In this document: piece after piece, positions 57,686 through 57,810 of the stretch
How the letters are laid out: every line of letters begins with the position of its first letter
Position numbering within the stretch: the first letter of the stretch is position 1
Source of the DNA: Escherichia coli
GTDB taxonomy: Bacteria; Pseudomonadota; Gammaproteobacteria; Enterobacterales; Enterobacteriaceae
NCBI RefSeq assembly: GCF_003334355.1
Contig: NZ_QOWP01000021.1
Reading direction: 5' to 3' (one strand)
DNA length: 64,000 nt
Position numbers and translations under genes: made by a program
Notes under the pieces: model-generated
Told to the model about the DNA's origin: nothing
What the model saw: the letters and a program-made list of their open reading frames with translations, nothing else
Databases searched by the model: none

Positions 57686-57714
57686 ATAAAAAAGGCCCCC
57701 CGATTTGGGAGGCC
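57686..57714 (-). terminator. pheA attenuator terminator hairpin
   Basis: On the minus strand GGCCTCCC-AAATC-GGGGGGCC followed by TTTTTTATTG, between pheL and pheA. Confidence 0.8.
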
Positions 57715-57762
57715 TTATTGTTCGTCTTCGCATTCTGTTTCACACGACGAAACGCCTCCCAT

Positions 57763-57810
57763 TCAGGGGAAGGTAAAAAAGAATGCGAAGAAAAACGGTA
57801 TGTGTTTCAT
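57763..57810 (-). CDS. pheL: pheA leader peptide PheL ([15 protein letters not shown])
   Basis: Minus-strand atg aaa cac ata ccg ttt ttc ttc gca ttc ttt ttt acc ttc ccc tga: 15 aa with 7 Phe codons, directly upstream of the attenuator. Confidence 0.9.

Follow-up and report, generated by a model that had tools for sequence, protein, structure and literature searches.

Recognition of the known pheL-pheA transcription attenuator in a 64-kb window of Escherichia coli DNA

In the analyzed stretch of E. coli DNA, 64 kb long and in the following called the window, the short leader peptide gene pheL lies on the minus strand between raiA and pheA (Table 1). The ORF upstream encodes RaiA (NCBIfam NF007654, 255.7 bits). 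The intrinsic terminator of raiA, which is separate from the attenuator described below, delimits the pheLA unit on its upstream side. The protein encoded downstream matches the PheA model NF007910 with 826.4 bits (cutoff 577). The gene following the leader therefore serves the biosynthesis of the amino acid that is sensed, as is characteristic of attenuators of amino acid operons. On its other side, pheA (−) is convergent with tyrA (+); about 42 nt separate the two stop codons (56461-56504), and a bidirectional terminator is presumably common to both genes.

Table 1 Features of the pheL-pheA leader region and further RNA elements, with positions in the window
Feature	Position	Strand	Basis	Remarks
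Phe leader RNA element, whole	57686..57811	−	Rfam RF01859	
pheL leader peptide gene	57763..57810	−	translation	15 sense codons + UGA; annotated pheL (WP_010723158.1) in identical E. coli DNA
pheL Phe codons	57795-57787, 57783-57775, 57771-57769	−	translation	
Shine-Dalgarno-like AAGGA of pheL	57822..57818	−	read from sequence	AUG 7 nt downstream
Segment 1, 5′ arm of the 1:2 "pause/protector" helix	57771..57796	−	MFE structure	spans Phe codons 6-13
Segment 2, 3′ arm of the 1:2 helix	57720..57743	−	MFE structure	
Antiterminator 5′ arm	57746..57761	−	masked-ribosome folds	UGGGAGGC (57761-57754) + UUUCGUC (57752-57746)
Antiterminator 3′ arm	57706..57726	−	masked-ribosome folds	GACGA...AA.GCCUCCCA; overlaps terminator 5′ arm
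Segments 3:4, attenuator hairpin	57692..57716	−	terminator scan	10 bp (7 G-C), 5-nt loop
U-run, 6 U	57688..57693	−	read from sequence	first two U close the terminator stem
pheA, regulated gene	56504..57664	−	NCBIfam NF007910 + RefSeq	386 aa; bifunctional chorismate mutase / prephenate dehydratase
Putative −35 hexamer TTGACA	57860..57865	−	read from sequence	directly 3′ of raiA terminator
Putative −10 region TACTGTA (hexamer TACTGT)	57835..57841	−		18-nt spacer from −35
raiA intrinsic terminator	57871..57890	−	terminator scan	8 pairs, 6 G-C
tmRNA (ssrA)	39566-39928	−	Rfam above gathering score	
C4 antisense RNA	30594-30827	−	Rfam above gathering score	adjoining isrK
tRNA	19293-19365	+	Rfam above gathering score	
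sRNA RyfD	61117-61255	+	Rfam above gathering score	adjoining yfiH/clpB

The Rfam family Phe_leader (RF01859) matches 57811..57686 (−) with 132.3 bits (E = 2.2e-25), above its gathering score of 55. All positions of the covariance model (1-125 of 125) are covered by the match, as expected of a member of the family. A 351-nt query across the region found a match in all 5426 complete E. coli genomes, with at least 99% identity in 4669 of them. The DNA is 100% identical to that in many E. coli genomes, including annotated copies of pheL-pheA, and the RefSeq labels on the matching DNA are "Phe leader region", pheL, pheA and raiA. Based on this annotation, we assigned the region to raiA-pheL-pheA-tyrA-aroF of E. 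coli and the element to the known pheA attenuator. The preliminary description of this DNA had named transcription attenuation with pheA downstream and had placed the element at 57686-57810. It is borne out by the PheA and Rfam scores, by the pheL, Phe leader and pheA annotation in 5426 of 5426 genomes, and to within 1 nt by the extent of the Rfam match.

Further Rfam matches over the same bases were rejected. A plus-strand Phe_leader match (57705..57817; 33.6 bits, below the threshold of 55) is a mirror image of the same hairpins, and Arrc14, ctRNA_p42d, BTnc231 and anti-hemB scored far below their gathering scores and represent chance matches driven by the terminator. In E. coli MB51 (NZ_CP073946.1), the annotated raiA is 360 nt long rather than 342 nt, and 18 additional bases split the match. 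This probably reflects an insertion or duplication of 18 nt close to the 3′ end of the gene, equivalent to about 57914-57950 of the window.

With 15 codons, pheL is absent from the ORF listing, which had a minimum of 20 amino acids. It reads, from 57810 to 57763 (−), AUG AAA CAC AUA CCG UUU UUC UUC GCA UUC UUU UUU ACC UUC CCC UGA. Translation of the minus strand gives Phe at 7 of 15 codons (6-8, 10-12 and 14), the number stated in the preliminary description, and the gene ends in UUC CCC UGA (codons 14-16). By this ending and its conserved nucleotide sequence it belongs to the enterobacterial UUC_CCC_UGA group. Searching all six frames of the 64 kb for stretches of 10 codons with at least seven TTY, we found just two, overlapping and both within pheL, while on average 0.015 per window occurred in 200 first-order Markov simulations. 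This density is therefore not due to chance. A Shine-Dalgarno sequence with its AUG and a short ORF rich in codons for the product amino acid are what is expected of the leader ORF of a ribosome-mediated attenuator. Translation of pheL has been demonstrated by ribosome profiling and tagged-peptide data, and profiling also found high ribosome density at its UGA-A stop (PMC5373646). Two PheL alleles occur in E. coli, one beginning with MKHIP as in the window (WP_010723158.1) and the other with MKHTPFFF... (WP_001386991.1). The single residue by which they differ, at codon 4, is not among the regulatory Phe codons.

Upstream of pheL, every base of the putative −35 hexamer TTGACA is kept in 90% or more of the 105 upstream regions compared from Enterobacterales. 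Within the putative −10 region, T57841, A57840, C57839, T57838, T57836 and A57835 are kept in 70-90% of these relatives, with TACTTTA as the consensus. A sigma-70 consensus scan called no promoter upstream of pheL, which we attribute to the weak −10 region. From these elements we infer the pheLA promoter and a transcriptional start near 57830, which would give a terminated leader of ~140 nt.

The same intergenic region can serve as an insertion site. In E. coli CFSAN018748 (NZ_CP028192.1, 1-36300), a ~35 kb P2-like prophage is flanked on either side by a copy of the 27 bp CAACGCGCCTTCGGGCGCGTTTTTTGT (57865-57891, −), which reach from the raiA terminator to the initial T of the pheA −35 hexamer. 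This prophage lies between raiA and pheL and carries an integrase, the GPO scaffold, a P2-family capsid and ogr/Delta. Its pheL-side copy of the 27 bp has one mismatch and leaves TTGACA intact. From this one genome, the segment appears to be the phage attachment core. The region query matched 5581 places in the 5426 genomes, at most two per genome, and 155 genomes may therefore carry such a raiA-pheL insertion. The window itself has no insertion between the two genes.

Elsewhere in the window, four further RNA elements scored above their Rfam gathering scores (Table 1). The ssrA gene is a classic integration hotspot, and C4/isrK is typical of P1/P7-like or prophage immunity regions. The location of the C4/isrK pair and a tRNA on the far side of ssrA suggests a prophage or island there.

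To place the leader among its relatives, one genome of each species was searched with a degenerate pattern for pheL codons 7-16, which gave at least 120 loci. Among the matches listed, 105 of 120 have a pheA homolog 80-250 nt downstream on the same strand. The remaining 15 listed matches, from Phycisphaerales, Pelagibacteraceae, Bacteroides, Planococcus and other MAG contigs, have no pheA downstream; they were regarded as chance or unrelated and excluded. We then used an alignment of 104 distinct Enterobacterales leaders, in which the leader of the window aligns with 103 others at a mean column identity of 80%. The columns of codons 7-16 were set by the search pattern itself, and their invariance is uninformative.

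An intrinsic terminator lies between the leader ORF and pheA, as in other attenuators. It consists of the hairpin AAGGCCUCCC-AAAUC-GGGGGGCCUU followed by UUUUUUAU, as found by the terminator scan, and folds on its own at −18.5 kcal/mol. The preliminary description had a GC-rich hairpin and T-run following the peptide. Hairpin and T-run are indeed present before pheA, but they do not adjoin the ORF: 46 nt (57762..57717) separate the stop codon from the terminator, and these bear the segments for the alternative pairings. Across the 104 leaders, 97.2% of the cells in the terminator stem are paired, and two of its ten pairs are compensatory (AU to GC or the reverse in 38 sequences, CG to UA or the reverse in 22), a score reached by none of 500 shuffles. 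The columns of the T-run are invariant.

The free leader (57830..57686) has a minimum free energy (MFE) of −51.7 kcal/mol, with z = −5.16 against dinucleotide shuffles, none of which was as good (0 of 200). This structure combines the 1:2 helix (57796-57771 with 57743-57720), an inner hairpin and the 3:4 terminator. The 1:2 helix has 22 pairs and, together with the 6-pair inner hairpin CUUCCC:GGGAGG (57772-57767 with 57760-57755), reaches −31.2 kcal/mol. It contains the regulatory codons, as a pause/protector helix should. In the alignment, 94.9% of its cells are paired and five pairs are compensatory, a number reached by 2 of 500 shuffles. Among them are the pairs that join codon 9 (GCA/GCU/GUA/UCC), at all three positions, to segment 2. 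The pheL helix has been classed as "hyperstable"; the transcriptional pause at pheL has a half-life of 16.7 s in vitro, lengthened 1.9-fold by NusA, and pausing in vitro was not regained when a second, compensatory mutation was combined with the first in the pause hairpin (PMC9291695).

The third pairing, the antiterminator (2:3), appeared when ribosomes were taken into account. For this, a 28-nt ribosome footprint was barred from pairing and the A site was moved codon by codon; for co-transcriptional folds we used the transcript at the stage immediately preceding synthesis of the terminator 3′ arm. The antiterminator pairs UGGGAGGC (57761-57754) with GCCUCCCA (57713-57706) and UCGUC (57750-57746) with GACGA (57726-57722). 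The GACGA is the 3′ end of segment 2 and thus also part of the 1:2 helix, and the GGGAGG of the 5′ arm also pairs with the CUUCCC of codons 13-15 in the untranslated fold. The antiterminator 3′ arm shares nucleotides with the terminator 5′ arm, so that only one of the two structures can exist at a time. In isolation, the antiterminator folds at −22.5 kcal/mol versus −18.5 for the terminator. The folding that the preliminary description had proposed as a check thus returned both alternative pairings.

With the A site on Phe codons 6-12, nine of the ten segment-3 nucleotides were paired upstream in the co-transcriptional folds, forming the antiterminator. The number was seven of ten at Phe14 and zero of ten at Pro15, at the stop codon or without a ribosome. 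A stall on Phe codons 6-12 thus gives, in the constrained folds, the antiterminator of a typical attenuator, sharing the 5′ arm of the terminator. Once the whole leader is out, a ribosome at Pro15 or the stop codon allows the terminator to form, as does the absence of a ribosome. The terminator is also the thermodynamic optimum of the full-length leader with the footprint at Phe12 or Phe14; at these two positions, read-through is thus predicted from the kinetic order of co-transcriptional folding.

Across the 104 leaders, 90.5% of the antiterminator cells are paired, compared with 40-53% for slid controls. Covariation counts for this pairing were not above those of shuffles in the same 104 leaders, in which the core pairs are nearly invariant. 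Where segment 3 carries C-to-U changes, the terminator compensates (G to A), whereas the antiterminator keeps its G and uses a G-U pair. This invariance fits a sequence locked by three overlapping pairings, and strictly it represents conservation rather than covariation. Since the core is invariant and constrained in this way, we did not count the absence of covariation against the pairing. The same argument on overlapping pairings limiting covariation has been made for the pheL leader before (PMC3082878).

Based on these results, we interpret the element as the pheL-pheA leader of E. coli acting as a ribosome-mediated transcription attenuator, with a probability of about 98%. The following scheme combines the sequence elements, the family membership and the three mutually exclusive, conserved pairings observed here with regulation by Phe supply and a pause that are taken from the literature. 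Transcription would start at the inferred promoter just 3′ of the raiA terminator. The nascent leader would fold the 1:2 helix, and RNA polymerase would pause until a ribosome starts on pheL. If charged tRNA-Phe is plentiful, the ribosome would pass the seven Phe codons and reach Pro15/UGA, where its footprint would hide GGGAGGC (57760-57754). With this sequence hidden the antiterminator would be blocked, the 3:4 hairpin (57716-57692) would form and transcription would stop before pheA at the U-run (57693-57688), the probable 3′ end of the attenuated transcript. If charged tRNA-Phe is scarce, the ribosome would stall on Phe codons 6-12 and cover segment 1, leaving GGGAGGC and UCGUC free. These would pair with GCCUCCC, including the terminator 5′ arm, and GACGA as soon as they are transcribed, the terminator would be pre-empted and the polymerase would continue into pheA.

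For E. coli, the attenuation mechanism has been established experimentally, and a scheme of 1:2 (pause), 2:3 (antiterminator) and 3:4 (attenuator) pairings, the same as in our folds, has been published (summarized in PMC3082878). Read-through into pheA rises when charged tRNA-Phe is limiting, and the basal read-through of ~10% depends on ribosome release at the UGA (PMC3082878). The window shares with pheL/pheA of E. coli K-12 (RF01859; UUC_CCC_UGA group, PMC3082878) the peptide, its ending, the three pairings and the position between raiA and pheA. We found no difference from K-12; the other E. coli allele, MKHTPFFF..., is one residue apart.

The leaders trpL, hisL, leuL, thrL and ilvL follow the same logic, from an ORF with cognate codons via overlapping hairpins and a U-run to biosynthetic genes. 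Pause, antiterminator and terminator hairpins overlap in these enterobacterial amino acid leaders. In contrast to them, pheL has Phe as regulatory codons, belongs to another Rfam family and has an unusually long and stable 1:2 helix. Moreover, the 5′ arm of its antiterminator lies just 3′ of the stop codon, so that a ribosome at Pro15/UGA would block this arm directly. The pheM leader of pheST, the phenylalanyl-tRNA synthetase operon, likewise encodes a Phe-rich peptide and is attenuated by charged tRNA-Phe. It differs in locus, peptide and downstream genes, lies outside of the window and gave no match here. Pause data for the amino acid leaders, as well as a mention of pheM, are found in PMC9291695.

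The leader could also have a second function beyond its action in cis, either through the ~140-nt terminated RNA acting in trans or through a recoding product with a role of its own. Recoding would take place at the shifty stop CCC_UGA present in pheL: the +1 frame is open for 51 codons before it meets, inside pheA, the stop codon 57611-57609, and read-through of the UGA in the 0 frame adds 15 codons (MGGVSSCETECEDEQ, then a stop). Nothing in the present analyses points to a trans target, however, and we know of none for the pheL leader RNA. Recoding itself has been measured for K-12 pheL, with at least 15% frameshifting in addition to read-through (PMC3082878, PMC5373646). Yet the sequence and length of the extension are not conserved among enterics, the 15% +1 frameshifting is without effect on pheA expression, and tRNA-Pro mutants altering frameshifting leave pheA expression unchanged (PMC3082878). 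Furthermore, the frameshift and read-through products were found in K-12 strains with a weak RF2 variant, to which recoding is ascribed (PMC5373646). Published work argues that recoding at pheL is incidental, and we consider a second function very improbable. The +1 frame that follows CCC_UGA (57609-57765, −) ends 53 nt beyond the pheA AUG in the window; this differs slightly from the "80 nt downstream" given for E. coli in PMC3082878.

Several times less probable still, and hardly worth considering, is a coincidence of short ORF and hairpin, in which an intergenic terminator or structured 5′ UTR would accompany a Phe-rich ORF that is untranslated or non-sensing: although 15 codons are below the listing size of the ORF finder and T-rich sequence can give Phe codons by chance, no other place in the six frames of the 64 kb has such a density of Phe codons (~0.015 expected), the Shine-Dalgarno sequence and AUG are properly spaced, Rfam assigns 132 bits, and a chance ORF is for practical purposes ruled out by the conservation of frame, length and FFFxFFFxFP-stop before pheA in 105 other Enterobacterales genomes among the matches listed, together with the published translation data (PMC5373646).

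Nothing in our results contradicts the explanation of pheL-pheA as an attenuator. Since the late 1970s, the pheA attenuator has served as a textbook case. It is thus already known, and publications cover its comparative genomics, its pausing and its recoding (including Gurvich et al. 2011, PMC3082878). The framing of pheL as a positive control in the preliminary description was appropriate. The value of the finding lies in calibration only: a 15-codon gene and an RNA switch are readable from raw sequence, within 1 nt of Rfam.
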